A stretch of DNA of 36,901 nucleotides from a virus (IMGVR_UViG_3300033076_000336:1-36901), one strand, 5' to 3'; numbered from the stretch's first letter, positions 2,646-35,917 are shown. Notes: generated from the letters alone by a model not told the origin. Program-made: numbers and translations.

Positions 2646-2651
2646 TAAATA
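2646..2651 (+). promoter_or_regulatory. TAAATA late-type promoter motif
   Basis: CTAAATAC in an intergenic gap; ATG 2679 is 28 nt after the motif end. Confidence 0.55.
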
Positions 2652-2678
2652 CTCAGCAAGAACAAAAAGGAGCATAGC

Positions 2679-2756
2679 ATGGTAGATTTAAGAGAAAACA
2701 ATTACAGAGACTACGAACAAGTTTATGAATGGCTAACAGAAGGAGAAGCAAGATGA
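2679..2756 (+). CDS. Small 25-aa ORF (MVDLRENNYRDYEQVYEWLTEGEAR), not in the ORF track
   Basis: SD AAGGAG upstream; stop overlaps the next start (ATGA 2753-2756). Confidence 0.55.
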   Translation: MVDLRENNYRDYEQVYEWLTEGEAR

Positions 2757-3082
2757 CAGAAGATTTAGGCATAGACATACCCAACACATTTCAATTCATG
2801 GGACAGACCTGGCAGATCAAACCAGGCACAACCAGAGACTTGGGACAAGACCTGGGCATATGCAACCGTGATGAAATGACCATTTACATCAACCCAGCAT
2901 ATCCTACACAAACTATCGTTCAAACCCTGTTTCACGAGATTGTGCATAGTTGGGAAATTACCCTGAACATGCACCTAACCGAAGATCAGGTAGACAACCT
3001 AGCAACCAGTATGATCCACTGGTTTAAGAGTAATCCAGAGTTTATCCCTGTGTTGATACAAGACGAGGACATTGAAGAATGA
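2753..3082 (+). CDS. HExxH zinc metallopeptidase-like protein (ImmA/IrrE/SprT-like fold)
   Basis: TIYIN...QTLFHEIVHS and downstream EDQVD. Start moved to 2753 (SD AGGAG 2741-2745). Confidence 0.7.
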   Translation: MTEDLGIDIPNTFQFMGQTWQIKPGTTRDLGQDLGICNRDEMTIYINPAYPTQTIVQTLFHEIVHSWEITLNMHLTEDQVDNLATSMIHWFKSNPEFIPVLIQDEDIEE

Positions 3083-3279
3083 TAGAACGCAGAATCAGTG
3101 AACATCGCTGGAATGACTTAGACGAAGATGAACAGCACCAGATCAAACGAATAGTTAGACGATACGCCAGCGATTTTGGTTTTGATTTTGAGTTTCAATA
3201 TTACTGGATGCGATTTACACCAGAAAACTGGTTACTAGCAAACCTAGCAGATACTAAAATAGAAAGGCAAATAACATAA
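3079..3279 (+). CDS. Hypothetical protein
   Basis: 66-aa ORF with SD GAGGA, overlapping neighbours at both ends. Confidence 0.7.
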   Translation: MIERRISEHRWNDLDEDEQHQIKRIVRRYASDFGFDFEFQYYWMRFTPENWLLANLADTKIERQIT

Positions 3280-3587
3280 TGGCAAGACCAGGACCAGAAA
3301 TAATACTAACCAAAGATACAGAAGATGGTGGTAGCCTAGAAGTGCTACACAGTCAAGGAGTTTGGGTATTGGCTTACAAAGGCATACCCTGTGCCCTAAA
3401 AGAACGCTACTATGCGGCAGATGGTGAGCACATCAAATATCCCAGAACAGGCTACAATAACGAAGCACATTGCGTTAGATTGGCTGAAAAGTTAAACAAG
3501 CAATTCAATACCAACAAGTTTACCTGCATGGAAGTGGTAAGATACACGGGTGAAAAGACCCTAATTAGACGCTTGACAAGTGAATAA
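3279..3587 (+). CDS. Hypothetical phage protein (MARPGP...LAEKLNKQF)
   Basis: TAATG coupling. From memory it resembles an uncharacterised family of large uncultured aquatic phages (MSRPKP...LAKKLN..F); not verified by search. Confidence 0.7.
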   Translation: MARPGPEIILTKDTEDGGSLEVLHSQGVWVLAYKGIPCALKERYYAADGEHIKYPRTGYNNEAHCVRLAEKLNKQFNTNKFTCMEVVRYTGEKTLIRRLTSE

Positions 3588-3601
3588 AGCGTATATATAA
3601 T
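3573..3601 (+). promoter_or_regulatory. Perfect consensus sigma70 promoter
   Basis: TTGACA (3573-3578), 17 bp spacer, TATAAT (3596-3601), upstream of ORF 3637. Confidence 0.88.
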
Positions 3602-3636
3602 ACACACATAAACAATCAATTTAGGACATTAACAAC

Positions 3637-3972
3637 ATGAAGATCACCCAAGATATATTTTACAAAACTCTTAAGACTGGCAGCACACCATGGAGTGTAG
3701 ATGATATCTACAATGAAATCAATACTCTGCTTGAAAATAAAAACTACCGTTGGACTAATCATTACTTCCAACGAGATCACGATGAGAAGTATTGGTTCAT
3801 CTACGATAACGAATGCTACTTGTTTGTGTTTGATGACAAGATCATAGTTCGCTGTGATCGTGATAATGTTAACAGTAGTGGCATGACGCACACTATTACC
3901 ATAAAGAAGCGTAGTGACATTGAGCGTGCCTACGATGAATTTAGAATGATGACAATGGAAGATGAGGAATAA
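3637..3972 (+). CDS. Hypothetical early protein
   Basis: 111-aa ORF, SD AGGA, first gene after the consensus sigma70 promoter. Confidence 0.75.
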   Translation: MKITQDIFYKTLKTGSTPWSVDDIYNEINTLLENKNYRWTNHYFQRDHDEKYWFIYDNECYLFVFDDKIIVRCDRDNVNSSGMTHTITIKKRSDIERAYDEFRMMTMEDEE

Positions 3973-3973
3973 T

Positions 3974-4165
3974 ATGAAAAAGACTATGGGTAAGTTTGAG
4001 ATCAAGGCTCGCAGACAAGAATACATGACAGCATTGGGTATTTTGGCTTCAATCAAGGAACACCTAGAAGCAGAAGAACCAAGTAGAGCATTAGCCTACA
4101 TTGAAATCTGGGACAAACAGTATACAGATTGGTTAGAAGAATTAGACCTTCAGGAGAAAAGATAA
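3974..4165 (+). CDS. Hypothetical protein
   Basis: Start moved to ATG 3974 (SD GAGGA 3964-3968). Confidence 0.65.
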   Translation: MKKTMGKFEIKARRQEYMTALGILASIKEHLEAEEPSRALAYIEIWDKQYTDWLEELDLQEKR

Positions 4166-4389
4166 TGCAGAAATATGTTACACCACATCCAGGCAGAACA
4201 CCAGGTGCAAATGTTATTGACACACTAAACTACAAGGTCAATGTTAAGTTAACTGAACTCAGGAATGAGAACTGGCAACTAGAGTTTGAAACATGGATAC
4301 CTGAGCATGGTTGGACCAGACGAGAATTGTTCCTGACCATGGAAGAACTTGAGAGATTTCAACAGGCTGTTAGCATAAAAAAACCATAA
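4165..4389 (+). CDS. Hypothetical protein
   Basis: Start moved to 4165 (TAATG overlap, SD AGGAG). Confidence 0.65.
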   Translation: MQKYVTPHPGRTPGANVIDTLNYKVNVKLTELRNENWQLEFETWIPEHGWTRRELFLTMEELERFQQAVSIKKP

Positions 4390-4392
4390 ATA
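4387..4392 (+). promoter_or_regulatory. TAAATA late-type promoter motif
   Basis: CATAAATATT overlapping the upstream stop; nozzle ATG is 24 nt after the motif end. Confidence 0.55.
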
Positions 4393-4415: not shown

Positions 4416-6335
4416 ATGCCACAAATTAAGAAAAGTTATGATGAAGTCGCTGTGCCATTTACCAAGATGACTTTCACTCCAGATGTTCCCAGTTCAGCAC
4501 TGGGAGCCAACGAATACAATGCAGGTGAGAATGTAGAAACCGATGTCAGAGGTATTCGTAGTGTTCTTGGAGAAACCGAAATTCTGCAAACTGTTCCTGG
4601 AGAACCTGTGTTTGTCACTGGTGGTTTTAGACAGGGTGGAGACTTTTACTTTATTGTGGCTAACACCTTGGGTGCATGGTATATGAACAAGGGAGATGGT
4701 TGGACCCTAATCACTCCACCAAGTCCTTATATCAACACAGGTTACACTCAAGACCTAGACATTACTGAATCATGGAACGGAACCGTGGTGATCTTTAATG
4801 ATGGTATCAATCCACCGTTCTTCTTACCTGATGAAGCAAACACAAAACTGGTCAACTATAAAAACAATATCACTGCTAACCAGATTACCACTATCGGAGC
4901 ACTGGCTGGTGGACAAAGAACCATCACGGTAGCCACAGCCTATGCTACTGCACCATTTGTTGCTGGTGATAGAATCTCAATTACCATGACTGCTGGTTCA
5001 ACGACATTCACTGGAATTTACCGTGTGGTCAGTTCAACAACCACAACCATTACCTACGAAACAACCAACGCTACAGCATGGGGTGTAACTGAAGCAGGCA
5101 CGGTAACCGCAGCCTACATATGGAATTATAATCCAGACTGGAAATCATTGACAGCAGGATTTGTCAGGATTTATTCTACACCTAATGTGGGTAACATCTT
5201 GGTAGCAGGTAATCTTACTGTAACAGATCAAAATAATGTAGTGAGTAATTATCCAATCACTGTGCAATGGTCACAAGCGTTTGGACTTAACGCCGCACCA
5301 AGAACATGGGAACCAACATTACTGAATGTGGCTAACCAAGTTGAAGTTCCGCTACGAGGCAAAGCACTGGACGCTTTCCCTAGCAATGGTCAGTTATACA
5401 TTTCAAGTTACTGGGACACCGCAGTTCTTACACCTATGAACTATGCAACAACATCAGCACCTATCCTGGGTATTAGACTGTTTAACCAGGGCAGAGGATT
5501 GTTAAACGCAAACTGCTGGGCAAATACTGATGACATGGTGTATGGTATTGATGCCCGTGACATTTGGGTATTCAACGGACAGACATTTCAGGGTATTGGT
5601 AACCAGCGTGTCAAGCACTACTTCTTTGACCAACTTGATCCACAATATGTAGACCGTGTTTATGTAGACTGCAACACAGAAAAGAATCAGGTAGAAATAT
5701 ATTATCCAGATAAGACAGCATACTTGCAGGGCGGACACCCAAACAAGATGTTGAGTTATCGTTATGACCTAGACTGTTGGAATGCTCCCAGAGATGTTAG
5801 CAAGGCTAGTTTTGCCTGCGAAAGCCCTGTGTGGAATCCTGATGATAACACTTACAACCGAGCATCACGAACAGTGGTTTACTGTAAAGGTGCAGAAGGT
5901 TTCAAACTGATCCAGAAAGATTATGGATACTTGTTCGTTGACGGTCAAGCAATCAACAGCACATTCCGCAGAGACAATATCAAACTGTTAAAAGATTACA
6001 GCAGTAAAACCATGGTTCATCGTATTTTACCTGAAGTGGTAAACTTGAACAACAATAATGTGGAGATTGATCCTACACTAAACCCAGAACTTATTGGCAA
6101 CATTGAAGTCACTGTAGAAGGTGCAAACTCAGTGGGTCAACAACCACAACAGGTAACTGGTAAAGTTATATCAACTGATACAGATTATCCATGGGTGCAG
6201 ATTGACCAGAATGCTCATCGTGTTAACAGCATTGAGATCAAGAATCCTATTGATCCTGCATTTGAAACTCCAGGCACAATCTGGATGGTTAATAGTGTGA
6301 CCTGGCAGTTTACAGAAACCGAGGACGACAGATAA
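4416..6335 (+). CDS. Tail nozzle / tail tubular protein (P22 gp10 / T7 gp12-like)
   Basis: 639 aa and beta-rich. N-terminal DVPSSALGANEYNAGENV, internal VQWS, and late EIYYP...YRYDLDCW segments fit podovirus nozzle propellers. Precedes the ejection protein genes. Confidence 0.72.
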   Translation: MPQIKKSYDEVAVPFTKMTFTPDVPSSALGANEYNAGENVETDVRGIRSVLGETEILQTVPGEPVFVTGGFRQGGDFYFIVANTLGAWYMNKGDGWTLITPPSPYINTGYTQDLDITESWNGTVVIFNDGINPPFFLPDEANTKLVNYKNNITANQITTIGALAGGQRTITVATAYATAPFVAGDRISITMTAGSTTFTGIYRVVSSTTTTITYETTNATAWGVTEAGTVTAAYIWNYNPDWKSLTAGFVRIYSTPNVGNILVAGNLTVTDQNNVVSNYPITVQWSQAFGLNAAPRTWEPTLLNVANQVEVPLRGKALDAFPSNGQLYISSYWDTAVLTPMNYATTSAPILGIRLFNQGRGLLNANCWANTDDMVYGIDARDIWVFNGQTFQGIGNQRVKHYFFDQLDPQYVDRVYVDCNTEKNQVEIYYPDKTAYLQGGHPNKMLSYRYDLDCWNAPRDVSKASFACESPVWNPDDNTYNRASRTVVYCKGAEGFKLIQKDYGYLFVDGQAINSTFRRDNIKLLKDYSSKTMVHRILPEVVNLNNNNVEIDPTLNPELIGNIEVTVEGANSVGQQPQQVTGKVISTDTDYPWVQIDQNAHRVNSIEIKNPIDPAFETPGTIWMVNSVTWQFTETEDDR

Positions 6336-7435: not shown

Positions 7436-7443
7436 TATAAATA
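7436..7443 (+). promoter_or_regulatory. Full T4-type late promoter consensus TATAAATA
   Basis: Exact TATAAATA in an intergenic gap; ATG 7468 is 25 nt after the motif end. Confidence 0.65.
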
Positions 7444-9271: not shown

Positions 9272-9277
9272 TAAATA
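9272..9277 (+). promoter_or_regulatory. TAAATA late-type promoter motif
   Basis: GGCTAAATATT; ATG 9300 is 23 nt after the motif end. Confidence 0.6.
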
Positions 9278-14594: not shown

Positions 14595-15026
14595 ATGAAC
14601 ACAGCAGAACTATTAACCCAAGTTTTTTATAACAACTTTACTGCCTACTATCGCAGTCATGTAGCCCATGTTAACACCGTGGGCAGAAACTTCAAAAGCG
14701 ATCACGCATTGTTACAAGGTATCTACGAAGATTTACAAGATCAAATTGATACCATTGCAGAATTGCTACGCACGCTAGACGAATTCATGCCCAGCGAGAT
14801 TCAGTTTGTTTTGAATGAAAGCACAATTAGCACAGCCATATTTGAAGGCACGGCTGATGAATTATTGGCAGGTGTAAGAGATGATTTAGAAACCCTAAAA
14901 GGTTTTTATGAAGATTTAATGGAGGAAGCAGAACTAGATGGACATAAAGAAATAGCCAACTACAGTCAGGACCGTATATTGGCTATTGCTAAACATATTT
15001 GGATGTTAAACGCTACTCTTGACTAA
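14595..15026 (+). CDS. dps: Dps-like (ferritin superfamily) protein
   Basis: HVAHVNTVGRNFKSDHALLQGIYEDLQDQIDTIAELLRTL aligns with the Dps signature HWNxxGxxFxxxHxxxxxxYxxxxxxxDxxAERxxxL. C-terminal KHIWML; 143 aa. Confidence 0.85.
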   Translation: MNTAELLTQVFYNNFTAYYRSHVAHVNTVGRNFKSDHALLQGIYEDLQDQIDTIAELLRTLDEFMPSEIQFVLNESTISTAIFEGTADELLAGVRDDLETLKGFYEDLMEEAELDGHKEIANYSQDRILAIAKHIWMLNATLD

Positions 15027-15275
15027 CTTATCGTTGGTTCTTTTTAAGCGGTAGCGATATTCGCCCCAGATATCAACAATGTCATCATAGCCACGAATAC
15101 CAGAAAATACTTCACAGCGTTCTTTGTTATAATGTGGATAGAATAACACAATGGCATCGTCCATGACTTCTAATCCACATAAGAAGTTTGCTTCAGTGTA
15201 TACATAGCGTTCATCGTCTATGGTGATATCTGGACAAAAGCCAGCGATGTGTCGTAGAATTTCTTGTTTGTTCAT
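15006..15275 (-). CDS. Hypothetical protein
   Basis: 89 aa, ATGA-coupled to the upstream minus-strand gene, converging on dps. Confidence 0.65.
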   Translation of the reverse strand: MNKQEILRHIAGFCPDITIDDERYVYTEANFLCGLEVMDDAIVLFYPHYNKERCEVFSGIRGYDDIVDIWGEYRYRLKRTNDKLVKSSV

Positions 15276-16850: not shown

Positions 16851-16862
16851 TCGGAGAATATA

Positions 16863-23516: not shown

Positions 23517-23519
23517 TAC

Positions 23520-23525: not shown

Positions 23526-23532
23526 ATAGTAT

Positions 23533-23877: not shown

Positions 23878-23887
23878 GGAAAATTAA

Positions 23888-25057
23888 ATGGAAACAACGA
23901 TCACCCCTAATGCTCCAGTGAGCACGGGCAATGACCAAAGTGCAGTTCCAAGTATGGATTCAATTGCAGCCAAGATGACCGCTATGCGAGAGCAAACACA
24001 GCGTAATCAACTTAGACAGCAACCAGACCAGACTGCGACAGGCGAAGATGATGCGGCAGCAGAATCTGCTCCTGTGGCTCCCAGTGAAACTGGTGCCGAA
24101 ATTGATGATGCCAATGATACTTTTGTTGACGAAAGCAATCAAGAGGTAGAAGCCCAGACTGATGAGTCTGTAAGCGATGACCAGACTGATTCTACAGCAG
24201 ATGAATTAATTGACTTTTTGGAGTTTGCTAATGACAATCCAAATGCCAAATTCAAGTTTATGAAGAATGGCAAAGAAGTCGTAATTGATGCTAAGAAAGC
24301 CGCCGCAATATTAGGTCAAGGATCAGCAATACACGAAGAAGCAAGACAACTCAAGATTGAGCGTGCCGAGTTTGATGAATATATCAATGAGATGCGTGCC
24401 AAACAGGAGGGTTTGACTTTAGCAATGGAATTTACCGTTCAGCCTAAGTTGCGTCAGGCGTATGATGAAATTGTGAAAACACAAGGTTATCAAACAACTT
24501 TCCAACAACAATTGGCAAGAACAAATGATCCTGCACAGATTGCTCGCATACAAGCCAGTATGCAACAAAATGAGCAGTATATCAGGCAACAACAAGCCGT
24601 AATTGGTCAGTTGAAGCCAGCGGTAGACCAATTCCAAGCAATTCGTAGCCAACAGGTTACGGCTGCACTAGAGAATGCTCGTAAAAGTTTTACAGACAAA
24701 GAGTTGAAAAACGAATATGTCTATAACGAATTGCGAGACAAACTAGGAAAAGTTTGGAAAGACGCTAAGAGTCAAATGGTTCCAGGTGTGGACAACATTG
24801 ATTTAGTCAGTAGTGACGAAACTCTTATGAGTTTGGTTAGAGATGGGTTAAGATATCGTGACCGTCCTAATGCAAAATCAGCAGGAGCCAGTATCGCTAC
24901 ATTAACTCAGCGTAAAGGCAGTTCTACTAGCCAAAAGTCTCAAAATGATGAAATCGGCAAACTTCGTGAACAAGCCAATAAAGGCGACAAAAAAGCCGCC
25001 GACAATCTGCTAGTAGCACGACTACAGAGTATTCGTGGTAGCAGAGGTTCAAGATAA
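23888..25057 (+). CDS. Capsid scaffolding protein
   Basis: Acidic disordered N-terminus, KNGKEVVI, long Gln-rich coiled coil, basic C-terminus; directly before the capsid gene. Confidence 0.8.
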   Translation: METTITPNAPVSTGNDQSAVPSMDSIAAKMTAMREQTQRNQLRQQPDQTATGEDDAAAESAPVAPSETGAEIDDANDTFVDESNQEVEAQTDESVSDDQTDSTADELIDFLEFANDNPNAKFKFMKNGKEVVIDAKKAAAILGQGSAIHEEARQLKIERAEFDEYINEMRAKQEGLTLAMEFTVQPKLRQAYDEIVKTQGYQTTFQQQLARTNDPAQIARIQASMQQNEQYIRQQQAVIGQLKPAVDQFQAIRSQQVTAALENARKSFTDKELKNEYVYNELRDKLGKVWKDAKSQMVPGVDNIDLVSSDETLMSLVRDGLRYRDRPNAKSAGASIATLTQRKGSSTSQKSQNDEIGKLREQANKGDKKAADNLLVARLQSIRGSRGSR

Positions 25058-25083
25058 TAGCCCATTTATAAGGAGAATTTAAA

Positions 25084-26253
25084 ATGGCAGAAATTACAAC
25101 CAGTCAAATTGGTAACGGCACAACCGCATACGGTAGTGACATCGTTGTCAAGGATTTGGACCTAGATGTGTCCAACCGTGTTAAGGACGATACACCTGTC
25201 CTAAACATGGCTATGAGCAAGAAGCGTAAAGTTAACAGCACACTACCATTGTGGACTGATGACATTTACCGCACTCCTGCTGTTCAAGCCCAAGTTGAAG
25301 GCGCAGCCGTTTCTACAAGCAACGCAGAAAGCAACAGCCGTTACAACTTAGGTAACTACACACAGATTTTCAGCACTACAATCGCTAGTTCTGGAACTGC
25401 TCGTGCGGTTATGCAAAGTGGTGGTGATCCACAGGCTTACCAAGAAGTTAAGCAATTGATCGAATTGATGTTCGATGTTGAACTACAATTAGTTCGTAAC
25501 GACCAGATCGGCACAAAGTATGCTGGTCAAAGTGGTTCCGCTACTGGTCTACCAAGCGGTCAAACTGGTCGCCGTATGGGTTCTTTGACTGCTTTCGCAG
25601 GCACATTGAGTTTTAACGGTAGTGCTGGTGTTAGCGACATTACATCTAATGTCAACAACGAAAGCACAGACACAGCAACTGCTACAGCAGGTGCATTGAA
25701 TGTATATGGTAACGGTTCTAGTTTCTATTCTGGAACATTCACAAACCAATACTTCAGCCCAGCGTTATACAAGCAGTTGGTAACTGTTGCTGAACAGCGT
25801 TACAATGCGAAGATTCGCACAGTTGTTGCTCCTACAAGTCTACGCACAAGTATCAGCGATAACATTCCTCAAAGCCGTAGTATCAACCGTGTAAACAGTG
25901 AGCGTGGTGACACAATCCAGACTTACGAAGGTGATTTCAACTACACTTATGAAATCTTTGATTCATGGATTATGGATCAAACTAACCCTAACAGCATCTT
26001 CTTCTTGAACGAAGATGTAGTTCAGTGGGGTTCCTTGCGTGATCTTGGTCCTAACAACGAAGTATTCAGCAATGCTGACGCTTCTCTAGACCAGTTCATC
26101 ATGGAAGGCACATTGATCGTTCGTAACCCTGCTGGTGTTGGCGTTTTAGGCAACATCAAGGCTAACGATACAACTAACCCAACACTACCTGGTGCTCGTG
26201 CGAGTGCTATGGTTCAGCGTGTCAACGCTGGTGCTGGCGATGTTACACCTTAA
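25084..26253 (+). CDS. Major capsid protein (DUF5309/SU10-like, HK97 fold)
   Basis: 389 aa with DTPVLNM, GNYTQIFS...SGT and EGTLIVRNP; strong SD TAAGGAG; followed by a terminator. Confidence 0.88.
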   Translation: MAEITTSQIGNGTTAYGSDIVVKDLDLDVSNRVKDDTPVLNMAMSKKRKVNSTLPLWTDDIYRTPAVQAQVEGAAVSTSNAESNSRYNLGNYTQIFSTTIASSGTARAVMQSGGDPQAYQEVKQLIELMFDVELQLVRNDQIGTKYAGQSGSATGLPSGQTGRRMGSLTAFAGTLSFNGSAGVSDITSNVNNESTDTATATAGALNVYGNGSSFYSGTFTNQYFSPALYKQLVTVAEQRYNAKIRTVVAPTSLRTSISDNIPQSRSINRVNSERGDTIQTYEGDFNYTYEIFDSWIMDQTNPNSIFFLNEDVVQWGSLRDLGPNNEVFSNADASLDQFIMEGTLIVRNPAGVGVLGNIKANDTTNPTLPGARASAMVQRVNAGAGDVTP

Positions 26254-26279
26254 TTCCCAAAAGGAATTATTTTGTGAAC

Positions 26280-26305
26280 AAAAGGCTGCTTCGGCAGCCT
26301 TTTTT
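26280..26305 (+). terminator. Intrinsic terminator with C(UUCG)G tetraloop
   Basis: AAAAGGCTGC-TTCG-GCAGCC-TTTTTT after the capsid gene; a second small hairpin TAATTCC/GGAATTA at 26251-26269. Confidence 0.9.
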
Positions 26306-26322
26306 GTTGGTGTCAATGAGCA

Positions 26323-26328
26323 TAAATA
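26323..26328 (+). promoter_or_regulatory. TAAATA motif restarting transcription after the capsid terminator
   Basis: GCATAAATACT; ATG 26336 is 8 nt after the motif end, no SD. Confidence 0.65.
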
Positions 26329-26335
26329 CTAGACT

Positions 26336-26920
26336 ATGAACGATATTAATAAACCTGAATACCTAGATGACAGTGATCCAGAAAAGAACTGGAATTATTA
26401 CAGGCAAGACCACGGTGGTATGATTACTAACCATAATGGTGTTGCGGATAAGTTATTGAAAAATGATGACCTTTATCGTAGCATGAAAGGTGATTGGTCA
26501 AGAACCAGCACCAATGCCAGTGGTAATATTGTGGTAACAACTGGTAGAGAAGATGGTAAGTTTTATATCAAGCGTGAGCAAAAGAATGCTGAATTTATAG
26601 CACAAAGATGCCAAGCATACAGAAAAGCCGCAGAACAAGGTTATCCTGATCCCATGGCACCAATTGGTGAAGATGGAAAACTTCAACACAAATGGATGGA
26701 ATTACCAAATGTGGTAAGTATAAGAATCAGTGACGAATATTTTGGCGGAATGCCATGGAGTGCTATTAAGCACGACAGAACACTCAAAGCACAGTTTTAC
26801 AAGGTTGTAGAACGAGAATACAATCAGTATGTTTGCTATCCAGGTGGCAAATTACCTATTCCAGTAGATGTGCCATACCCTACAAAGCGTGGGGAAAAAC
26901 GCTTCTTTCAAGGACGATAA
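26336..26920 (+). CDS. Hypothetical protein between capsid and adaptor genes
   Basis: 194-aa ORF in the morphogenesis module. Confidence 0.8.
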   Translation: MNDINKPEYLDDSDPEKNWNYYRQDHGGMITNHNGVADKLLKNDDLYRSMKGDWSRTSTNASGNIVVTTGREDGKFYIKREQKNAEFIAQRCQAYRKAAEQGYPDPMAPIGEDGKLQHKWMELPNVVSIRISDEYFGGMPWSAIKHDRTLKAQFYKVVEREYNQYVCYPGGKLPIPVDVPYPTKRGEKRFFQGR

Positions 26921-26923
26921 TAA

Positions 26924-28135
26924 ATGTTTACAATACCCAACGCTAATGCCTTAGTTGATTATATCAGGGACTTTACTGGTAGTGGCACAAGTGCGGCAGC
27001 AACAGCAGAAATCAAACAATGTATCTTTTTGGGCGAGTTATCAATGCGTAACTTGGAAATCCCTGCCCTGCGTAGTGACCCTTATGATCCGCTTTATATT
27101 GGCGTGGTTGATAGTCAAGGCAGCGTGCCTATCCCTGGTGACATGAACAAGCCTATTTTGTTTTTTAAACAAGGTCAACAATATATTACTAGTGCAACTG
27201 CTACAGGAACAAGCGGTGCTAATACAATTACCATAACATCTACACCTAATCGTCCACTAACTCAGGGTATGACTGTAACTGGCACGGGTATTGCCGTAGG
27301 TGCTACGATTACTCAGGTCAACGGTAACACTATTACACTAAGTCTTGCAAATACTGGCACAGTCAGTGGCACAGTAGTTTTCCAGACTCCTGCGCCTGCA
27401 ACTCAACAAAGTCAAACAGGTCCATGGATTGTTTATGATCGTATTGGTGATCGTGATATTATCACACAAAGTATGATTGCTCAATTATACTTACAACCAG
27501 TGAATGTGCCCGCAGTTATTCGTGGTAAATTCAGTGAAGTTGGACAAAAATACAAGTTCTTGCCTTACACAGCCGAAGGCGACCTAATCAACATGTATTA
27601 CTACAAAGCATGGGCATTGTTATTCGCACCTGTTGATGACATTTTTATCAGTGCTACAGGCACAGTTGGTAGTATTACTGGCACTGGACCATGGACTGCT
27701 ACTATTACTGGTATGACAACAACTGATGGTATTGAAGTTGGCAATCAGATTATTGCCACAGCAGGCACTGGTAGTTTGGGCACAGGTGGCACAGTTGAAG
27801 TATTAAGTGTAGATAGCGCCACACAAATTACCATTACTAAAACTGGTGGAACTATACCTACTGCTGGAACCATTACTGACATTTACCTAACAAACTTGGA
27901 TACACAGACAAATCCAGTTTTACAAACATTCCCTGAAGGTTATGTTTACGCTACACTTCGTGAATACTACCTTAAGCGACACAACGAGGCAGATGCCGCA
28001 ACCTACGAAGGAAAATTCCAACAGGCTGTAGCAACTGTCAGTGACCAGAATAACCTGGCAAAATGGAGTGGAGGTCACACACGATTGACCAGCGTTTGGC
28101 AACCTAGACAATATCGCCAATATAACATCAAATAA
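26924..28135 (+). CDS. Head-tail adaptor protein with two inserted Thr/Gly-rich beta domains
   Basis: N-terminal IKQCIFLGELSMRNL and C-terminal TNPVLQTFPEGYVYATL...YEGKFQQAV fit podovirus adaptors. Confidence 0.72.
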   Translation: MFTIPNANALVDYIRDFTGSGTSAAATAEIKQCIFLGELSMRNLEIPALRSDPYDPLYIGVVDSQGSVPIPGDMNKPILFFKQGQQYITSATATGTSGANTITITSTPNRPLTQGMTVTGTGIAVGATITQVNGNTITLSLANTGTVSGTVVFQTPAPATQQSQTGPWIVYDRIGDRDIITQSMIAQLYLQPVNVPAVIRGKFSEVGQKYKFLPYTAEGDLINMYYYKAWALLFAPVDDIFISATGTVGSITGTGPWTATITGMTTTDGIEVGNQIIATAGTGSLGTGGTVEVLSVDSATQITITKTGGTIPTAGTITDIYLTNLDTQTNPVLQTFPEGYVYATLREYYLKRHNEADAATYEGKFQQAVATVSDQNNLAKWSGGHTRLTSVWQPRQYRQYNIK

Positions 28136-28145
28136 GGATTAACAC

Positions 28146-31100
28146 ATGCCAAGTTTATACGAAACAACCGCCGCAGTAGGTGATGTAAGTTCTAGTAACT
28201 TTACAACACTTTACAACAGCAGTGGATTAAGTGCACCAAATACAGGTGGTGGGGCTGTTGGTGGTAACCTTAATGTTGCTGGTAATCTAACAGTTCAAGG
28301 AACAAGTTTATTACAAGGTGCTGTTACACTAGGCAGCACCCTAAGTTTGCCTAACTATACATTCCCATCAGGTGATGGTGGAACGGATCAGGTTTTAACC
28401 ACTGACGGTAGTGGTAACTTAATATGGCGAAATGTTCAAACACTTCCAGGTGCTGAATATAATATCAGTGCAACTACAGCCACTGGCGGTGCTAATTTAA
28501 CATTAGCCAATACTGCTGGTGATACAGATTCAGTTAAGTTTGCAGGTGGCACAAATATTACTGTTAGCAGAACAGACGCTAATACAATTACTATTTCTAC
28601 AACTGCTGATGATATTCCCAGCGGCACAGCCAATGGTCAAATGCTTGTCTGGGAAAACTCAGCATGGACTGCAACTAATGATGTAGTTTGGACCGATACT
28701 ACACAAAGAACAGCAATTACGGGTAAAGCAGGTATCAATGGTAGAGTAAACAGCGCATTGCGATTGGTTAATGACACAGGTGCAACACCATATACCACAA
28801 ATGATGGCACTGGTATTTTAATATCTCTTGACAGTGACAGTCAAGCGGTTAGTGCATATGCGGCATTAACAGGGGCTTATAACAGCACTAATAACCATCA
28901 GTTCCGTTTTAGCACAAGTAAAAGTAGTTTTTCCACAGATATCGCAACCAGCATTACAGGCGGTAACACATTAGTATTCAGTGCGCCACACGGCTGGAGT
29001 GCTGGACAAAATTACACTTTTGTAAGTGTATCAGCAAACGGTTTAACTACTGGCACAACATATTATGTTTTAGCCAGTGGTTTGACCGCAACTCAAGCAC
29101 AAGTTAGTTTAACACTAGGTGGCAGTCCTGTAGCTTTAACCAACGGCACAGGCTTAAATCTTGTATTCCAAGACAGTGAACGAATTATCACAGCGGATCA
29201 AGATATCTTTAATGTTGCAGGTAAAACTTTAACTCTTAACAGTTTGGGCACAGGTGTTGCTGGTGTTGATTCAACTATTGCATTTGAGCGTGGCACTAGT
29301 GGCGCAGATGCAACATTTAAATGGAGCGAAACAGATCAGCGTTTTGAAGTTAATCAACCATTCTGGGCACAGGGTATAATTTCTACAGATGCTGAAAGCA
29401 TCAGCATGAATGCTGACAACACAGCCACTGACAGTTATTTGAACTTCAAGGGCTTTACACAGTATTTGAAATGGGACAATGCTAACCAACGATTCCAATT
29501 AAGTGACAAACTTTATATTTCTACAGATGCTATTCCTCCTGCACTATTTGAACGCAGAGTAGTGAGCAGTGATGTAAGCGCAAATGAAGGTAAGAGTGCC
29601 CTGCGTATTTTTGAGCGTGTAACGGATGTTGCCAATAACAACAATGATATCGGTGGTCCAGCAATGTTGTTTGGACGAACATATGGTGCCAGTGGTGGCA
29701 CTGAGCGTTTATTTGGTAGTATCGCAGGTATTTGGCATGGCACAACTACAACAGCAGATTTAAACTTTGCATGGAGTAATGATAACTTTACTGAAACTAG
29801 TCCAGGCGTATTTCCTGGCAGTTATACATTGTTGCGTCTTGGCAGCAATAATGCCGAGTTTTTCAATAACAGTTTGTATGTAGATTACAGCACACTAGGT
29901 TCTACTAAAGTTGGTATTAATAATGACACTCCTGCTTATACATTAGATGTTACAGGCGATGGTCGTATCACAACTAATTTAACAGTGAATGGTAGTTTGA
30001 CAGTTAATAGTGGTATTGTTAATACAACTAACACTACTGCCACATTATTCAATACTACAGCAACAACTGTAAATGCATTTGGTGCGGCAACAGCAGTTAA
30101 TTTAGGTAACAGTGGCGGCATAGTAACTGTTAATGGTGATTTAGCAGTTAATGGTGGAGACATTACTACCAATGTAGGTGCAGGTGGTATTGCTAATTTA
30201 TATAACAGCAATGCAATTGGCACTATCAACATTGGTGCTAGCGTAGTCACTGAAGTTAATATTGGTAATACCAGCGGCAGCAGAGTTCAAATCAAATCGC
30301 CTACTATTGTAGGTGCTAATACTACACAAGCAGTATTCAACACCGTAGCAACTACTGTTAATGCGTTTGGTGCGGCAACTACAGTCAGCATCGGTGCTAA
30401 TACTGGCACAACAACTATCAACAATGATTTGGTTGCTGACAATTTTGATACTACAAACATTCGTGCAACTGGTTATATCACAGCAGGTTATGGTGGTGCG
30501 GCTCCAACAACATTAGCCGCAAATGGCGATGTTACTGTTGGCAATGATTTAACTGTTACTGGTAATGACATTAAATCTAGCACTGGCTTAACTGCAATTA
30601 CACTAGACAACAACAACATAGTTGTTGCGGGTGATATTACTGTTACTGGTAATGACATTAAATCTAGCACTGGTTTAACTGCAATTACACTAGACAACAA
30701 CAGCATAGTTGTTGCGGGTGATATTACAGTTAATGGACAAGATATTAAGAGTCTTGGTGGCACAACTGCTATTACTTTAAACGGTGCTGACATCGCCACA
30801 GGCGACATTACCTTAAATGGTGGTGATATTCGCAGTAGTGGTGGAACTGTTGCCGTTAGTGTTAGCGGTGCAAATGCAACTGTAGTAGGTGACTTGGCAG
30901 TTAATGGTGGAGATATTACAACTACTCAAACAACTGCTAGTGTATTCAATACAACTGCTACTACATTGAATGTAGGCGGTGCGGCAACTACTGTTAACAT
31001 TGGTGCAACAACTGGCGGAACTATAATCAACAATGATTTGAGTATTCGTCCAACTTCTACATCTACACTAACTGTAATTGGTTCTATTTCAACTCTGGTA

Positions 31101-31397
31101 ACAACTCAATTAAATACTACATCAACTGCTACATCAGTAGTTGTATCTACTACAAGAAGCAGTATGAACGGTAGTGTAACCGTTAAAGACAATGTAACCA
31201 ATGCGTTGCATACTGTTAACTTTACTGCACTTAGAAATGGTGCAACTGCCATGTTAACCACATATGGCGAATTATATACTGCGGCTGCATTGGCAACATT
31301 TACAGTTGATATCAGCGGCAGTGACATGAGATTGTTAGTGACTCCAGCAAGTGCTAACAGCACAACATTTAACGCAGTTAGAACTGCTATATCTTAA
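28146..31397 (+). CDS. Tail fibre / long virion fibre protein 1
   Basis: 1083 aa, Thr/Gly/Asn-rich, with repeated GDLAVNGGDI and [17 protein letters not shown] units. Confidence 0.8.
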   Translation: MPSLYETTAAVGDVSSSNFTTLYNSSGLSAPNTGGGAVGGNLNVAGNLTVQGTSLLQGAVTLGSTLSLPNYTFPSGDGGTDQVLTTDGSGNLIWRNVQTLPGAEYNISATTATGGANLTLANTAGDTDSVKFAGGTNITVSRTDANTITISTTADDIPSGTANGQMLVWENSAWTATNDVVWTDTTQRTAITGKAGINGRVNSALRLVNDTGATPYTTNDGTGILISLDSDSQAVSAYAALTGAYNSTNNHQFRFSTSKSSFSTDIATSITGGNTLVFSAPHGWSAGQNYTFVSVSANGLTTGTTYYVLASGLTATQAQVSLTLGGSPVALTNGTGLNLVFQDSERIITADQDIFNVAGKTLTLNSLGTGVAGVDSTIAFERGTSGADATFKWSETDQRFEVNQPFWAQGIISTDAESISMNADNTATDSYLNFKGFTQYLKWDNANQRFQLSDKLYISTDAIPPALFERRVVSSDVSANEGKSALRIFERVTDVANNNNDIGGPAMLFGRTYGASGGTERLFGSIAGIWHGTTTTADLNFAWSNDNFTETSPGVFPGSYTLLRLGSNNAEFFNNSLYVDYSTLGSTKVGINNDTPAYTLDVTGDGRITTNLTVNGSLTVNSGIVNTTNTTATLFNTTATTVNAFGAATAVNLGNSGGIVTVNGDLAVNGGDITTNVGAGGIANLYNSNAIGTINIGASVVTEVNIGNTSGSRVQIKSPTIVGANTTQAVFNTVATTVNAFGAATTVSIGANTGTTTINNDLVADNFDTTNIRATGYITAGYGGAAPTTLAANGDVTVGNDLTVTGNDIKSSTGLTAITLDNNNIVVAGDITVTGNDIKSSTGLTAITLDNNSIVVAGDITVNGQDIKSLGGTTAITLNGADIATGDITLNGGDIRSSGGTVAVSVSGANATVVGDLAVNGGDITTTQTTASVFNTTATTLNVGGAATTVNIGATTGGTIINNDLSIRPTSTSTLTVIGSISTLVTTQLNTTSTATSVVVSTTRSSMNGSVTVKDNVTNALHTVNFTALRNGATAMLTTYGELYTAAALATFTVDISGSDMRLLVTPASANSTTFNAVRTAIS
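30552..30727 (+). repeat. 87-bp tandem duplication (29 aa) in fibre 1
   Basis: Units begin at 30552 and 30639 and differ at two positions. Confidence 0.9.
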
Positions 31398-31416
31398 AAT
31401 AGGGATTGTGTGAACT

Positions 31417-34400
31417 ATGAGTAACGAAAAATTCAAAGTCAAGTTTGGCTTGGCGGTTGGCGATACAGCCGCAACAGTGGATGGAACTACTGGTGATATC
31501 TATACCAGTGGTAGTGCTATCATTAATCAAAACTTACAAGTTAACGGAGCAACTACATTAGGTAATACTCCTGCTGATACTGTAAGCATTAATGGTGATA
31601 CGCTAATTAACAATGCACTTACTATTGGTAGTGGCAGTGGTGATACTGTAACTGTAAACAGTCAAGTAAGCGGCAACATTACATTCAGTGATAATAGCAC
31701 TACAACAAGTCGTGGTGTTACGGGCACAGTAGGAACCAACGACTATTGGAAGTATGGTGGTGGTGCAACTGGATCAAATGCTGGCTATGCTGAAATTGCT
31801 ACAGGTGATGATGGCACTGAGCCTATCTATGTTCGTCAATACAGTGGCGGTAGTATCGCTAAACAATTTACATTAATGGATTCAAGTGGTAATACACAAA
31901 CTGCTGGTGATTTAACTATTAATGGTAATGGTTACATTTATAGTTCAACAAATCTAGCACTAGATTTAACAGGTGCCGATGTTAGTGTAGCAGGGGACCT
32001 AAGTGTTTTAGGTGGGGATATTAATGTTCCTACTGCAACAGCCAACATTGCAAACACAACTGCTACAACTGTAAACTTTGCAGGAGCCGCTACTACTGTT
32101 AGCATTGGTGCCAACACAGGCACAACAACCGTTAACAACAGTCTTGTTGCTGATGATATTAGCATTGCTACTGTTGATACAACTACTTTGAAAGTTACTA
32201 ACATACAAGCAAAAGATGGCACAGCGGCTGCTACTATTGCTAACGGCACAGGCATTATTACTGTTAGTAGTCAATTGAATGTAGATAACATTAATATTAG
32301 TAACAATACAATTAGTAGCACAGACACTAACGGTAATATTGTTTTAACTCCAAACGGCACTGGTGTTATTAGTGCAACCAACAACATTACAGCAGGTAAA
32401 GGTCAAACTACTACTAGAACAATTACAGGTGGTGGTAAAGCTGTTGACAGTAATGGTGATGTTTTAATTTTACCTATTTCATCAGCAAATACTGTAAGTC
32501 CATATGCCGCCTTTTTTGATAATACAACCACAAACAGAAGTGGTCGTGTTTTAATGCGTGAATACGGACAAAATACACCTGGTGGCACAAGTTCTACGCA
32601 GGGTAATGCAAACATACAACTTGAAGGTAGTCGTGGAACAGCGGCTAGTCCTTTAGCACCTAACACAGCCAACACTAGTGTTGCTACTATGGCATTTGGC
32701 GGTTATGATGGCAGTCGCTGGAGCAGTGAAAACGCTGTAGGCTTACCATTAGCCTCAGTAGTTCAAGCCACTGAAGCATGGGGCAATGAAACCAGTAGTT
32801 TTACTGGTAGTATCAGTGGAACAACATTAACAGTTACGGCAGTGGCTAGTGGCTCAATTTGGCTTGGTCAAGTAATTACTGGCACTGGTATTACTGCTGG
32901 CACAACAATCACGGGTTTTGGTAACAATACTAACGGTGGCACAGGAACTTATACAGTAAGTTTTAGTCAAACAGTAGCATCAACAACTATTACTGGTGTT
33001 GGCACAACTGCTAGCGGATCACGATTCTTAACTATCCAACAACCTACAGGTGTTAAATTAAGTGGTCAAAGCCGTAACACTACTTTTGGTCTTGTTAATA
33101 CAGCACCATCAACTTCTACCGTTAATACCGTAAGCGTTCCAGTAGCACCAGGTCATCAAATTATTTTAGGTAATAACGATAGTGGTGACATTACTATGTT
33201 GGGTAGCACCAGTAACATTGTTTACAAAGGTAGAGGTCAAACACAGTTTAGTCTTACTGGCGGCAGTATAACACATATCGGTGTAACAGGACAGGATACA
33301 GCAAGTTTTACAGGTTATATTGACAACGGTGCTGGTTCAGCAGGTAATACCTTAACAGTTACCGCAGTAAGTTCAGGCACTATCAGCGTGGGTCAATTGG
33401 TTGTGGCAACTGGTATTCAGCCTGCTACATTTATTACTGCGCTGGGCACAGGCACAGGCGGTGTAGGAACTTATACTGTCAGCACAACATTTGCCACAGC
33501 AGGTCAAACTGTTGGTAGCAGTGGCACGCCAGTTGCCATGGTAACTACACCAGATAACTATGGTTTGCGTAATAGTAACTTGTTCTTTACAAGTGCAAAC
33601 CGTAAAAGTCCTGTAAGTGGTCGTCGTGCACCATTAAAGAACAATGACATAATATATTCATTTAGTTTTAATGGACAAAACGGTAGCGGTGTAGCCAACA
33701 CTGGTCTTGGAGTTTCAACTGCTGGCATGTCATTTACAGCGGCTGGAGATTTTACTCCAACCAGTGCACCAAGTGCATTTAACTTAAACTTAACACCAGT
33801 CAATTCAGTTACAAGTAAATCATATCTTGGTATACTTACAAACGGTCAAACCAATTTCAGCGATCCAAACGGTTACAGCAGAGAAGGTTTAAATTACACA
33901 CCAAGAACAGCCAGTGTTGATAATAGTGCTAGCCTTAACTTAAATATGGTGAATAATGGTGCGTCTGCTTATTCACAACCGCTGTTGAACTTTATTAATG
34001 TGCGTTCTACTGATGGTATTAACTATACACCAACACAGGCAAACGATGTTATCGGTGGATATAAGTTTAACGGTAATGCCTATACCAGCACAAACCCTGG
34101 TGTTCCAGCAGGTCCAGCGGCACAGATTACTTGTTATGCTACTGAAAACTGGACTAGCACAGCCAACGGTGGTGGTTTCCGCTTTACTGCTATTAAAACT
34201 GGCACATTAACTGATGTAACTGTAATTGATGGTAACAGTAGCAATACACAATTCGCCAGCGATCAGTTTACATTTAAGGATACCAGTGGCACAAACATTA
34301 CTGGTAACAAGATCAACTACAACCGTGTATATGGACAATGGCAGTATGATGCTACTATTACGCCTGCGGCAAGCAATACCGCTTATGTGTTCCCACTAGG

Positions 34401-34776
34401 CACCGCTGATTATGCTAACATTGCCAGCGTTGGTAGCACAAGTAGATTGATTCCAGGTGCAATTGGTCAATTCAACATGCAGTTCAGTGTTCAAGTTGCC
34501 AACAGCGATAACGGCACTGAACATACTGCATACATTTGGTTGCGTCAAAACGGTGTAGATGTGGCTGGTAGTATGGGTAGAATCACTGTGCCAAAAGGTG
34601 GTGCAACAATTGCTGGTTGGAATAATCTTTGTGTAACTACTGCTACAACAGATTACTTTGAATTGGCTTATGCAACAGATGATGCTACACATATTTCATT
34701 CCCATTCTATGCAAGCACAGCATTTGGTCCAAGCACAGCCGCATTGTTTACAACATTAACACCAGTAGGTGCATAA
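31417..34776 (+). CDS. Tail fibre protein 2 with C-terminal C1q/TNF-like (BclA C-terminal-like) domain
   Basis: 1119 aa; C-terminal [10 protein letters not shown]...YIWLRQNG...DYFELAY jelly-roll pattern; shares shaft repeats with fibre 1. Confidence 0.8.
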
Positions 34777-35126
34777 TGGCAGAACTAGACGAAAATTACA
34801 TGGACAGCCGCATATGGAAATATGCGGTCCAACACGCTAACAGAGAAAGAAACATGGACAATTTTAAAGAGACAAGCCTGAAAGGTCATATACAACTTTG
34901 CGAATTACGCTATCGTAGTCTGGAGGAAAAGATCAATGCAGTTGAAACTAAACTCGTTAAAGTGGAAGATAAAATGTCTACACTTAAGGCTGAAATGCAA
35001 ACAGGTTTCAGTGAAATTAAGTTGCTCATTGAACGACAGAACAACGCCAGGACCATTCAGTTAATTGCCACCATTGGCACAATAGCGGCTGCTATAGTGG
35101 CAGGCTTATTTGCTTATTTAAAATAA
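34776..35126 (+). CDS. Coiled-coil protein with C-terminal transmembrane anchor
   Basis: HIQLCELRY followed by a heptad region and hydrophobic tail LIATIGTIAAAIVAGLFAYL. The true start could be a later Met. Confidence 0.7.
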   Translation: MAELDENYMDSRIWKYAVQHANRERNMDNFKETSLKGHIQLCELRYRSLEEKINAVETKLVKVEDKMSTLKAEMQTGFSEIKLLIERQNNARTIQLIATIGTIAAAIVAGLFAYLK

Positions 35127-35127
35127 T

Positions 35128-35565
35128 ATGGGCAGAATGAAAAAACGAGAAACCTGGCTTACCAAGTCAGGTCAAACTCTAATTGACTATGGCTTACACC
35201 CTGGTGCATTGCTCAGTCAGTATATTACTTGGCAGCGTCCTGCGGGCGGCTATGCTACTATTCCTGATCCAGAACCAGATACTATCAATGTTGCTATCTT
35301 GGCAAAGAAACCTGTGATGTTGGATTTACCGCATGTCTATTTCATGCAACCACAGCAGGATAAGCGATTCTGGATTAGTTTTGGTAGAAGCGATAATCCA
35401 CGCAAGACTGTTGACGGTGTAAAAGATTTTTGGATTGCACACTGGATTAATCCTACGGCAGCAACACCAAGACCTTATATACATCAAGAGTTTCAGGTAA
35501 TAAGTTTGGCAAAAGATATACCTGCTGGCACTAGATGGAAATACATGGAACAATTTGTTGAATAG
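35128..35565 (+). CDS. Hypothetical protein
   Basis: 145-aa ORF closing the fibre operon. Confidence 0.7.
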   Translation: MGRMKKRETWLTKSGQTLIDYGLHPGALLSQYITWQRPAGGYATIPDPEPDTINVAILAKKPVMLDLPHVYFMQPQQDKRFWISFGRSDNPRKTVDGVKDFWIAHWINPTAATPRPYIHQEFQVISLAKDIPAGTRWKYMEQFVE

Positions 35566-35576
35566 CACGCTAAATA

Positions 35577-35654
35577 CTTTTACTAAAGTTAAAGTTTAAA
35601 GACATTTTAGTATCCTTTCCGTTCTTAAACCCCTGTTCGCAGGGGTTTTCTTTT
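35577..35654 (+). ncRNA. Candidate small RNA 1 (~70 nt) with anti-SD/anti-AUG segment
   Basis: TAAATA 35571-35576, no + strand ORF, GACATTTTAGTATCCTTTCC (35601-35620), then a terminator. Confidence 0.55.
35627..35654 (+). terminator. Intrinsic terminator with UUCG loop
   Basis: AAACCCCTG-TTCG-CAGGGGTTT followed by TCTTTT. Confidence 0.85.
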
Positions 35655-35657
35655 GAC

Positions 35658-35691
35658 TAATACTAAAGTATAGGGGTATATTTTAGTATTA
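35658..35691. repeat. 15-bp inverted repeat (operator-like or hairpin)
   Basis: TAATACTAAAGTATA-GGGG-TATATTTTAGTATTA with one G:T mismatch. Confidence 0.75.
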
Positions 35692-35716
35692 TATAGACTT
35701 TAGTGATAAATATTAT

Positions 35717-35892
35717 TGACCGCTGATGGCAGTAATTTCTATCAATAAAGCCATTTTGAGTATCCTCGATTGCTGTCGGCGGTCACTCTTGTAGACATTT
35801 AGTGATGTTCAGCACTAAATATTTTGTCAGTGCAATGCTGACAGTTATCCTTTTTGTAAATCTCACGCCATACGCCCCGCAAGGGGCGTTTT
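35717..35892 (+). ncRNA. Candidate structured RNA(s) 2/3 with anti-SD/anti-AUG segments
   Basis: TAAATA 35707-35712; 17-bp stem 35717-35733/35769-35785 with four G:U pairs; hairpins 35797-35820 and 35825-35843; terminal GNRA hairpin 35872-35889. Confidence 0.65.
35872..35892 (+). terminator. GC-rich hairpin with GCAA tetraloop and short U tract
   Basis: ACGCCCC-GCAA-GGGGCGT-TTT. Confidence 0.65.
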
Positions 35893-35911
35893 GGTTTATG
35901 GTCTATAAGGC

Positions 35912-35917
35912 TAAATA
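35912..35917 (+). promoter_or_regulatory. TAAATA late-type promoter motif
   Basis: GGCTAAATACA after the terminal hairpin, upstream of GTG 35953. Confidence 0.55.

Follow-up and report, generated by a model that had tools for sequence, protein, structure and literature searches.

TAAATA boxes ahead of the genes of a podovirus-like clade and a possible dependence on the late sigma factor of a co-infecting large phage

The virus record IMGVR_UViG_3300033076_000336, a stretch of 36,901 bases analysed over its full length and called the window here, holds a podovirus-like genome with its own virion genes, in which the hexamer TAAATA, the core of the late promoter of T4-like phages, recurs upstream of genes on either strand. 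The same layout is found across a clade of related genomes, in which no recognisable sigma factor was detected. Since TAAATA stands before almost all genes while a recognisable reader is lacking, these elements are likely to be satellite viruses which borrow transcription from another phage.

Gene content of the window and its relatives

CheckV rates the record as complete, yet it lacks end repeats. The window is 58% AT, and whole genomes of its clade measure 33-40 kb. Its gene content (Table 1) comprises terminase, SU10-type portal, capsid, adaptor, an SLT-domain virion protein, two long fibres, Dps, a GIY-YIG nuclease and a DUF5906 primase-helicase, the SU10-type portal and major capsid protein being recognised by profile (PF23899, E 2e-48; PF17236, E 2e-35). 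The GNAT label given to 15272-15772 comes from motifs seen by eye, with no match to a hidden Markov model (HMM). [quoted passage not shown]

A search of IMG/VR with the capsid gene returned 560 related stretches, from which 21 whole genomes form the core clade comparison (G-numbers denote clade, sister or jumbo records and L-numbers denote loci). The sister set consists of 12 whole genomes of the sister clade (40-45 kb; G050-G077) together with MW202484. The two clades occupy distinct branches of the capsid tree (FastTree support 0.89 and 1.0), with a capsid identity of 61-65%; no loci were found for the deeper outgroups P0246 and P0252. Sequencing runs labelled freshwater, aquatic or estuary contain 0.2-0.5 of the words of a 10-kb stretch. 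A scan of GTDB gave no clade prophage and only a 3.2-kb binned contig, and a Dechloromonas bin contains a sister-type contig at 62% identity. Tyrosine integrase (PF00589) was absent from all 22 clade genomes searched, with controls matching in 14 of 14; serine integrases had no separate search.

Table 1. Features of the window discussed in the text (nt, nucleotides; aa, amino acids; ORF, open reading frame; prim-pol, primase-polymerase; fractions are orthologues with a site, unless genomes are named)
Feature	Position	Strand	Remarks
Prim-pol C-terminus	2-154	+	73% over 30 aa to G001
DUF5906 / P4-family primase-helicase	151-1827	+	profile match
Direct and inverted opposed repeats with AT-rich core, likely iteron origin	1826-2091		directly 3' of helicase
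TAAATA box	2646-2651	+	heads small-gene block: 15-aa ORF 2681, SprT-like 2729, 3079, 3279
102-aa beta-rich protein	3279-3587	+	in 12/21 clade genomes; not sigma-like
Perfect sigma70 promoter TTGACA-17-TATAAT	3573-3601	+	precedes three small non-universal genes 3637-4389
TAAATA	4387-4392	+	23 nt 5' of tail gene 4416-6335; 19/20
TAAATA, full TATAAATA	7438-7443	+	24 nt 5' of 597-aa gene 7468
TAAATA	9272-9277	+	22 nt 5' of 248-aa gene and SLT-domain virion block; 21/21
TAAATA	14584-14589	+	5 nt 5' of Dps 14595-15026, predicted leaderless
TAAATA	15798-15803	-	25 nt 5' of GNAT-like gene 15272-15772; 15/18
TAAATA	15832-15837	+	5 nt 5' of putative small terminase (terS) 15843-16208; 16/20, all 4-5 nt
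TAAATA	16206-16211	+	5 nt 5' of 48-aa basic ORF 16217-16363; 15/16
TAAATA then hairpin	17903-17908	+	54 nt 5' of 264-aa gene and terminase operon; 21/21 within 100 nt
Own virion module	19052-34776	+	large terminase, SU10-type portal, scaffold, SU10 major capsid, adaptor, two long tail fibres
TAAATA	21200-21205	+	25 nt 5' of SU10-type portal 21231-23516; 19/21
TAAATA	23520-23525	+	7 nt 5' of operon of 114-aa gene, scaffold and major capsid; 17/21
Capsid terminator 26280-26303, then TAAATA 26323	26280-26328	+	7 nt 5' of operon of 194-aa gene, adaptor and tail fibres; 17/20, at 5-7 nt
Holin-like coiled-coil and transmembrane protein, label inferred	34776-35126	+	family in 20/21 genomes; no recognisable adjoining endolysin
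Three TAAATA boxes 35571, 35707, 35816	35571-35897	+	head short hairpin/terminator units; weak sigma70-like site 35653
TAAATA	35912-35917	+	behind terminator 35872-35889; last promoter-like site before 97-aa gene, GIY-YIG, (missing small ORF, prim-pol), helicase

TAAATA boxes in the window and across the clade

The original prediction listed 15 TAAATA sites as T4-type late promoter cores, and all 15 are present on the strand it gave. The window holds 20 copies (18 on the plus and 2 on the minus strand) where shuffles predict 34.6; that list omitted the intergenic copy at 35816, and the remaining four lie inside genes. When enrichment was measured against 20,000 shuffles which kept the upstream stop codons in place, TAAATA was found in 10 of 40 upstream windows of 45 nt compared with 2.7 expected (P=0.0003), and it ranks first among the hexamers of the upstream regions. 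The full octamer claimed at 7438, the switch of strand ahead of the minus-strand gene, the box right after the capsid terminator and the lack of any conserved -35 were likewise borne out (Table 1). The caveat that several copies overlap stops can be made precise, as five of the 15 (4387, 14584, 16206, 17903 and 21200) do so and ten are free.

Other parts of that description hold less well. The sites were said to lie just before starts, which is not the case for 35571 and 35707 (376 and 240 nt from a long ORF); they head short hairpin/terminator units instead. Of two sites taken for true sigma70 promoters, the one at 3573 is perfect (12/12), while that at 2105, TTGCAG-17-TATAAT, has a perfect -10 but matches only 3/6 of a -35 and was missed by the promoter scanner. 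The units at 35571-35897 contain no long ORF and fold at -17 to -29 kcal/mol, which makes them candidate small RNAs; they are identical in G021, a near relative, show no wider conservation and have no Rfam match.

Across the 21 clade genomes, TAAATA precedes 163 of 199 core promoter genes; 37 of these sites overlap a stop codon and 126 do not. Among the orthologues in the sister clade, 1 of 93 has the box. Retention runs from 21/21 for the 248-aa and 264-aa genes to 16/20 for terS, with the portal, tail, post-capsid and minus-strand genes in between (Table 1). The pattern extends to 77 further loci with 70-83% capsid identity, where at least one upstream site is found in 45 of 45 long loci and at least two in 35, whereas none of 61 sister loci has two. 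Every gene shared by all 21 genomes belongs to a block with TAAATA at its head, and none of the early genes is universal. Stops of the TAA type are followed by ATA in 46 of 544 cases in the clade and in 4 of 300 in the sister clade.

Long ORFs make up 80% of the DNA in 80 clade loci; 463 of 604 plus-strand copies fall outside them, and 123 of these 463 non-genic sites stand exactly 5 nt before an ATG, with no -35 or other conserved second element. Two spacing classes can be recognised, 4-7 nt and 15-32 nt before the ATG (5-7 nt or about 22-25 nt in the window). The leadered sites have a separate AGGA-type ribosome-binding site downstream; for the 4-7 nt class, leaderless messages are predicted from the spacing. 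The 5-nt peak would be consistent with transcription beginning about one helical turn from the box, and it is also present in phages which encode gp55 (53/102 sites in 80 gp55 loci; 11/37 in HTVC008M) and in the jumbo-phage contigs G046 (11/82), G047 (7/53) and G049 (3/18).

The common flank in the clade is RCTAAATA or RATAAATA. Amongst 224 sites, ACTAAATA accounts for 57 and GCTAAATA for 35, and the T4 octamer TATAAATA for only 19, so that the designation as a T4-type promoter stands for the core and the missing -35 but not for the full octamer. A purine at -2 is common to the clade and jumbo-contig boxes, and by this comparison of motifs the clade flank is closer to that of gp55-like jumbo phages than to the T4 octamer. 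Composite promoters, in which TAAATA is nested in a TTGAC...TATAAT spacer, make up 6 of 89 (G012, G018, G002, G011 and G020); they also occur in the jumbo contigs G046 and G047 and in none of 17 sister-clade promoters.

Avoidance of the hexamer provides a separate line of evidence. No antisense hexamer in clade genes is depleted as strongly as TAAATA (52 observed, 223 expected; rank 1 of 4007), while antisense TATAAT is not avoided (251 observed vs 274 expected). In the sister clade the pattern is reversed, with 87 observed against 102 expected for TAAATA, 5 against 26 for TATAAT and 23 against 74 for TAAAAT. Taken genome by genome, TAAATA does not exceed 0.44 of expectation in any of the 21 clade genomes, where sigma70 -10 variants range from 0.77 to 1.15; in all 13 sister genomes these variants reach 0.61 at most. 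The antisense depletion of TAAATA ranks 1, 2 and 1 in the jumbo contigs G046, G047 and G049, and 6 in HTVC008M. The hexamer alone seems to act as a promoter, and because an activator needing a second site would leave lone hexamers unpurged, we infer a sigma factor of the -10-only type.

Two other origins of the box were considered and rejected. An archaeal TATA box is rejected by inference, since the boxes peak at 5 nt, have no conserved element upstream of them and coexist with sigma70 promoters. An artefact of stop codons or AT content is rejected on account of the enrichment with stops fixed, the stop-free sites and the antisense depletion.

Reader search, lost genes and the replication module

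The original prediction found no sigma factor, and dedicated searches agree with it. Sigma70 region 2 (PF04542) gave no match in 20 clade genomes, phrog_234 none in 45 clade records (control matched) and phrog_12791 none in 44 (both controls matched), and custom gp55 HMMs run over six frames of the clade found nothing better than E 0.11; the genomes made complete by direct terminal repeats (DTRs) are included. General scans with Pfam, PHROG and NCBIfam, which covered 41 window ORFs and 149 of 154 cluster representatives (70-700 aa; the five left out were four long ones and a 70-aa one), returned no sigma factor or RNA polymerase, RNA polymerase families never having been searched by name. Merging profiles across the 21 genomes revealed no further universal family.

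About 1 kb of the genome is missing from the window. Synteny with G001 places a 61-aa ORF and the prim-pol there, and in G021, whose identity to the window is 99.4-99.9%, the junction is bridged by an 80-aa ORF together with a prim-pol of a different allele. Judging by these two relatives, the missing part most likely consists of a small ORF and the primase. Their junction content disfavours a sigma factor or RNA polymerase hidden in it.

The two best-conserved unassigned proteins of the clade were also modelled. The 264-aa protein is predicted to be beta-rich at low confidence (predicted local distance difference test score, pLDDT, 58.6), with no match in PDB or the Atlas. The model of the 102-aa protein (3279-3587) reaches pLDDT 87 and is also beta-rich; it has no PDB match (best Z 4.7) and resembles only uncharacterised phage proteins. 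A gene of about 95 aa with a zinc-finger-like CxxC..HxxxC pattern lies 5' of the tail gene in eight genomes (L115:12673-12960 and 7 relatives), all of which lack the 3279-3587 family.

Relative to the sister clade, a number of genes have been lost. Erf is found in 0 of 21 clade genomes and in 13 of 13 of the sister set, MW202484 among the genomes searched; SSB in 0/21 vs 11/13; and RusA in 0/21 vs 9/13. RuvC, replication initiators and regulators, also present in the sister set, were not found in the 21 clade genomes. An endolysin of the GH19 or lysozyme type is carried by 0 of 22 clade genomes and by 11 of 12 sister genomes, whereas the holin-like gene is retained in 20 of 21 clade genomes. 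Cell lysis is probably also borrowed from the co-infecting large phage.

The prim-pol is present in the window and in 10 of 20 relatives, so that the lack of a primase, a mark of MiniFlayer-type satellites, does not describe the clade. Of 10 genomes with a prim-pol, 8 carry TAAATA upstream of the replication operon and lack a canonical sigma70 promoter within 2.5 kb; in the window, the box at 35912 is the last site ahead of this operon. The primase-helicase matches TIGR01613 only weakly, below the cut-off. Opposed repeats around an AT-rich core 3' of the helicase occur in most helicase-bearing relatives as well, and those at 1826-2091 are likely to be an iteron replication origin. The repeat unit changes with the helicase allele (window 1826-2091; L460:11060-11320), and a central CCTAGnTAnCTAG-type core is common to the window, G001 and G021. 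The replication cassette appears to be swappable, because G021, despite its near identity to the window, carries a different prim-pol, helicase and origin (L460:11302-13799), a difference pointing to a recent module swap.

Replication genes vary further within the clade. The module is inverted in G009, and in G012 the order is swapped, with the helicase before the prim-pol. No replication gene was recognised in the DTR-complete genomes G008 (L085-L086) and G018 (L093-L094). An uncharacterised family of 355-580 aa occurs in G019, G003, G006 and G020 (L095:9635-10753, L099:15521-17266, L105:1431-3071), the four of which have no prim-pol. It has 421 homologues and no Pfam, PHROG or PDB match, and its YDI, R...K and HDG motifs resemble the palm of a family-A polymerase.

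Candidate helpers, lifestyle and known systems

A gene shared with large phages offers a clue to possible helpers. When a clade member of the 3279-3587 family was searched with tblastn against 50,697 cultured-phage records, all 15 rows returned were jumbo phages (the PA5oct group, Atu_ph07, SCTP-2 and Phosso) at 42-54% identity. A gp55-like sigma factor is encoded by PA5oct, by Atu_ph07 and by five of five large contigs with this gene. The tree of the family has long branches and indicates no donor. In jumbo phage CBB, the available description reports ATAAATA and a gp55-like sigma factor, with no gp33 or gp45 detected (PMC5259590), and T4 gp55 alone supports basal transcription of supercoiled plasmid DNA (PMC2988020). 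Searches for gp33 and gp45 in five jumbo contigs gave no match, although these had no positive control. A jumbo gp55-like sigma factor which has no detectable gp33/gp45 partner could therefore act on foreign DNA. PA5oct- and Atu_ph07-like jumbo phages appear to be the best helper candidates, and Kyanoviridae-type phages such as HTVC008M, with the same 5-nt layout, remain candidates as well.

Other comparisons do not single out a helper. No spacer-like DNA match to three jumbo contigs was found; Dps matched cultured phages only at 27-32% identity and the first tail fibre not at all. Similarity of codon usage to jumbo phages (r 0.95 vs 0.65) was rejected as confounded by GC content, and shared IMG dataset numbers are uninformative, being common to sister-clade contigs as well.

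Taking these lines together, the element is probably a non-integrating, virophage-like satellite of a gp55-like jumbo or T4-like phage. The particle would enter a cell co-infected by such a phage, or await one, either by attachment of the kind described for MiniFlayer (PMC10690885) or through brief persistence aided by a few sigma70-driven genes. The helper's -10-only late sigma factor, acting on host RNA polymerase, would then switch on the replication operon (prim-pol, helicase and iteron origin) and the virion operons, the 4-7 nt class being transcribed as leaderless messages. The satellite would package its own DNA and be released through the helper's endolysin. The tests proposed in the original prediction that could be run, namely enrichment and sigma searches, came out in favour of its borrowed-sigma interpretation, and the helper-dependent lifestyle itself stays an inference. 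We lean slightly towards a broader statement, in which a widespread tailed-phage lineage hundreds strong would be bacterial virophages with a full virion and a minimal swappable replicon, nearly the whole genome and with it replication having been rewired to a clamp-independent jumbo gp55-like sigma factor and the own endolysin given up.

Several observations weigh against a borrowed sigma factor. The flank is an imperfect fit, with C at -1 in 43% of clade sites compared with 13-35% in the jumbo contigs. Palindrome avoidance, when pooled, correlates with the jumbo sets (r 0.39-0.70; sister 0.28), but the per-genome difference is weak (P=0.12), reaching P=0.006 only in a subset with overlapping GC content. 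Clade genomes share 1-5 genes each with three jumbo contigs, which is the same as in the sister clade. The sigma70 promoter at 3573 is real and relatives have others, some with TAAATA nested in them, which allows part of the genome to be transcribed in a helper's absence; the window also encodes its own primase-helicase, and G002 carries an M15 peptidase endolysin, the only one recognised in the clade. Most small clade ORFs have no assigned function, and the HMM absence is not airtight, since a sister-clade terS profile missed the clade terS and fast-evolving genes can thus escape profiles. No helper-satellite pair, host or transcript start was observed, the RNA runs X19 and X20 containing only relatives' contigs, without starts or strand.

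The strongest alternative, though an unlikely one, is an autonomous phage that redirects the host polymerase to TAAATA by a -10-only sigma factor or activator of its own, which would have escaped recognition and be expressed from a sigma70 promoter or through read-through. The many unassigned small ORFs leave room for such a factor, and candidates can be named: the 3279-3587 family (12 genomes) and the zinc-finger-like family (8 genomes) are complementary in distribution, four genomes have helix-turn-helix-bearing genes 3' of the holin, and 4 of 21 carry the 355-580 aa family with its polymerase-A-like motifs. However, none of the candidates is universal, yet the box is identical clade-wide; 17 genomes, the window included, lack the polymerase-like family, profiles for gp55 and sigma70 find no match, and the two best-conserved unknowns are predicted to be beta-rich (the 264-aa model at low confidence) rather than helical sigma domains. 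The loss of endolysin, SSB and Erf would also be left unexplained.

It is less probable still that an alternative or relaxed sigma factor of the host reads TAAATA, in an autonomous phage with a novel lysis system. Box, spacing and avoidance all match gp55-encoding phages, and canonical TTGACA-17-TATAAT promoters coexist in the same genomes with boxes that have no -35 or other conserved second element. We know of no cellular sigma factor with a TAAATA-only consensus, although some bacteria tolerate promoters without the -7 T. GTDB yielded no prophage of the clade but only the small binned contig, and Dps, which all 21 genomes carry, may be a sign of hosts in stationary phase.

Facultative use, in which a slow solo cycle runs from sigma70 promoters and read-through while TAAATA keeps transcription going under takeover by a large phage, we regard as improbable. 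It would account for the sigma70 and composite promoters, the own replicon with a full virion set and the endolysin of one genome, but strong terminators separate operons with only TAAATA behind them (26280-26328; 35872-35917), sigma70 -10 boxes are not avoided at all and an endolysin is recognised in just 1 of 21 genomes. That TAAATA is no promoter but comes about through AT-rich spacers, stop codons or some translation signal is scarcely credible, for in spite of the 58% AT genome and the 37 core sites which overlap a stop, 126 of 163 are stop-free, TAA followed by ATA is a feature of the clade and not its sister, the motif is depleted genome-wide and most of all antisense, and the leadered sites have ribosome-binding sites of their own.

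A sigma-borrowing satellite of this kind can be set beside known systems. The late promoters of T4, TATAAATA, read with gp55, gp33 and gp45 (PMC2988020), and of cyanophages, NATAAATA (PMC2984593), are likewise -10-only boxes with no -35 and AT-rich flanks, placed before virion operons on either strand. Unlike T4, the clade has no profile-detectable readers, its flank is mostly RCTAAATA or RATAAATA and the box also heads the replication operon. Jumbo phages (CBB/GAP32, PA5oct, Atu_ph07, G045-G049) share with the clade the TAAATA core, the purine at -2, the two spacing classes, the strongest antisense avoidance, composite sigma70 and TAAATA promoters and a gene of 90-100 aa, but they are large (106-490 kb) and encode the sigma factor. 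The available text on PA5oct gives only TATAATA and TTGAC motifs (PMC7318152).

Virion-encoding satellites and helper-activated satellite promoters are both known. Like MiniFlayer, MulchRoom, Ando and Aci01-2-Phanie, the last a virion-encoding phage satellite as cited in PMC13587820, the clade encodes capsid and packaging genes itself. MiniFlayer, which has a podovirus-like tail, does not integrate, and it and MulchRoom are described as having no primases (PMC10690885); Ando, of 13 kb, is described as having no tails and, in a further resemblance to the clade, no lysis genes (PMC13587820). These three differ from the clade, whose virion set is full and which often encodes a primase-helicase as well. 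Neither promoter nor sigma occurs as a word in the main texts on MiniFlayer and Ando (PMC10690885, PMC13587820), and the known virion-encoding phage satellites described there are a few cultured Streptomyces and Acinetobacter cases which borrow replication, tails or lysis.

A primase-helicase with a putative iteron-like origin may recall P4, subject to the weak, below-cut-off TIGR01613 match. The late promoters of P4 are switched on by its helper's Ogr. Expression of PLEs depends on the programme of ICP1 (PMC13595925). Unlike P4, PICIs and PLEs, the clade has no tyrosine integrase that was found and uses its own capsid, and the borrowed item would be a sigma factor. Virophages of the Mavirus/CroV type have their own virion and replication genes and helper-type late promoters, and borrow the giant virus's own RNA polymerase; theirs is a eukaryotic system with no homology to the clade. 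Portal, capsid and adaptor are of the SU10 type, as in the kuraviruses phiEco32 and SU10, and the sister clade shares this virion module. phiEco32 encodes its own sigma factor and DNA polymerase, which the clade was not found to do, and the sister clade differs from the clade in having Erf, SSB, resolvase, endolysin and regulators and no TAAATA layout.

In the literature outside subscription papers, which were not covered, no description of the clade or of the borrowing of gp55 or a sigma factor was found. With the appearance of an ordinary 35-kb podovirus, the clade nevertheless seems to rely on another phage for its sigma factor. If this is true, some phages counted as lytic podoviruses would be parasites of jumbo phages, and estimates of the control of jumbo phages and of hosts would change. 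A simple screen, combining upstream enrichment and antisense avoidance of TAAATA with the absence of gp55 and endolysin, suggests itself, and a signature of 6 bp would then expose hidden satellites among ordinary-looking metagenomic podoviruses.

Two further features of the window may be mentioned. The Dps-like gene at 14595-15026 has counterparts of 143-159 aa throughout the 21 clade genomes, which appear leaderless in six. Between terS and the 264-aa gene (16217-17905) lies a run of small basic or Gly/Pro-rich ORFs with GRGPTKGN-type repeats, two paralogues of which are present in 21 of 21 genomes.

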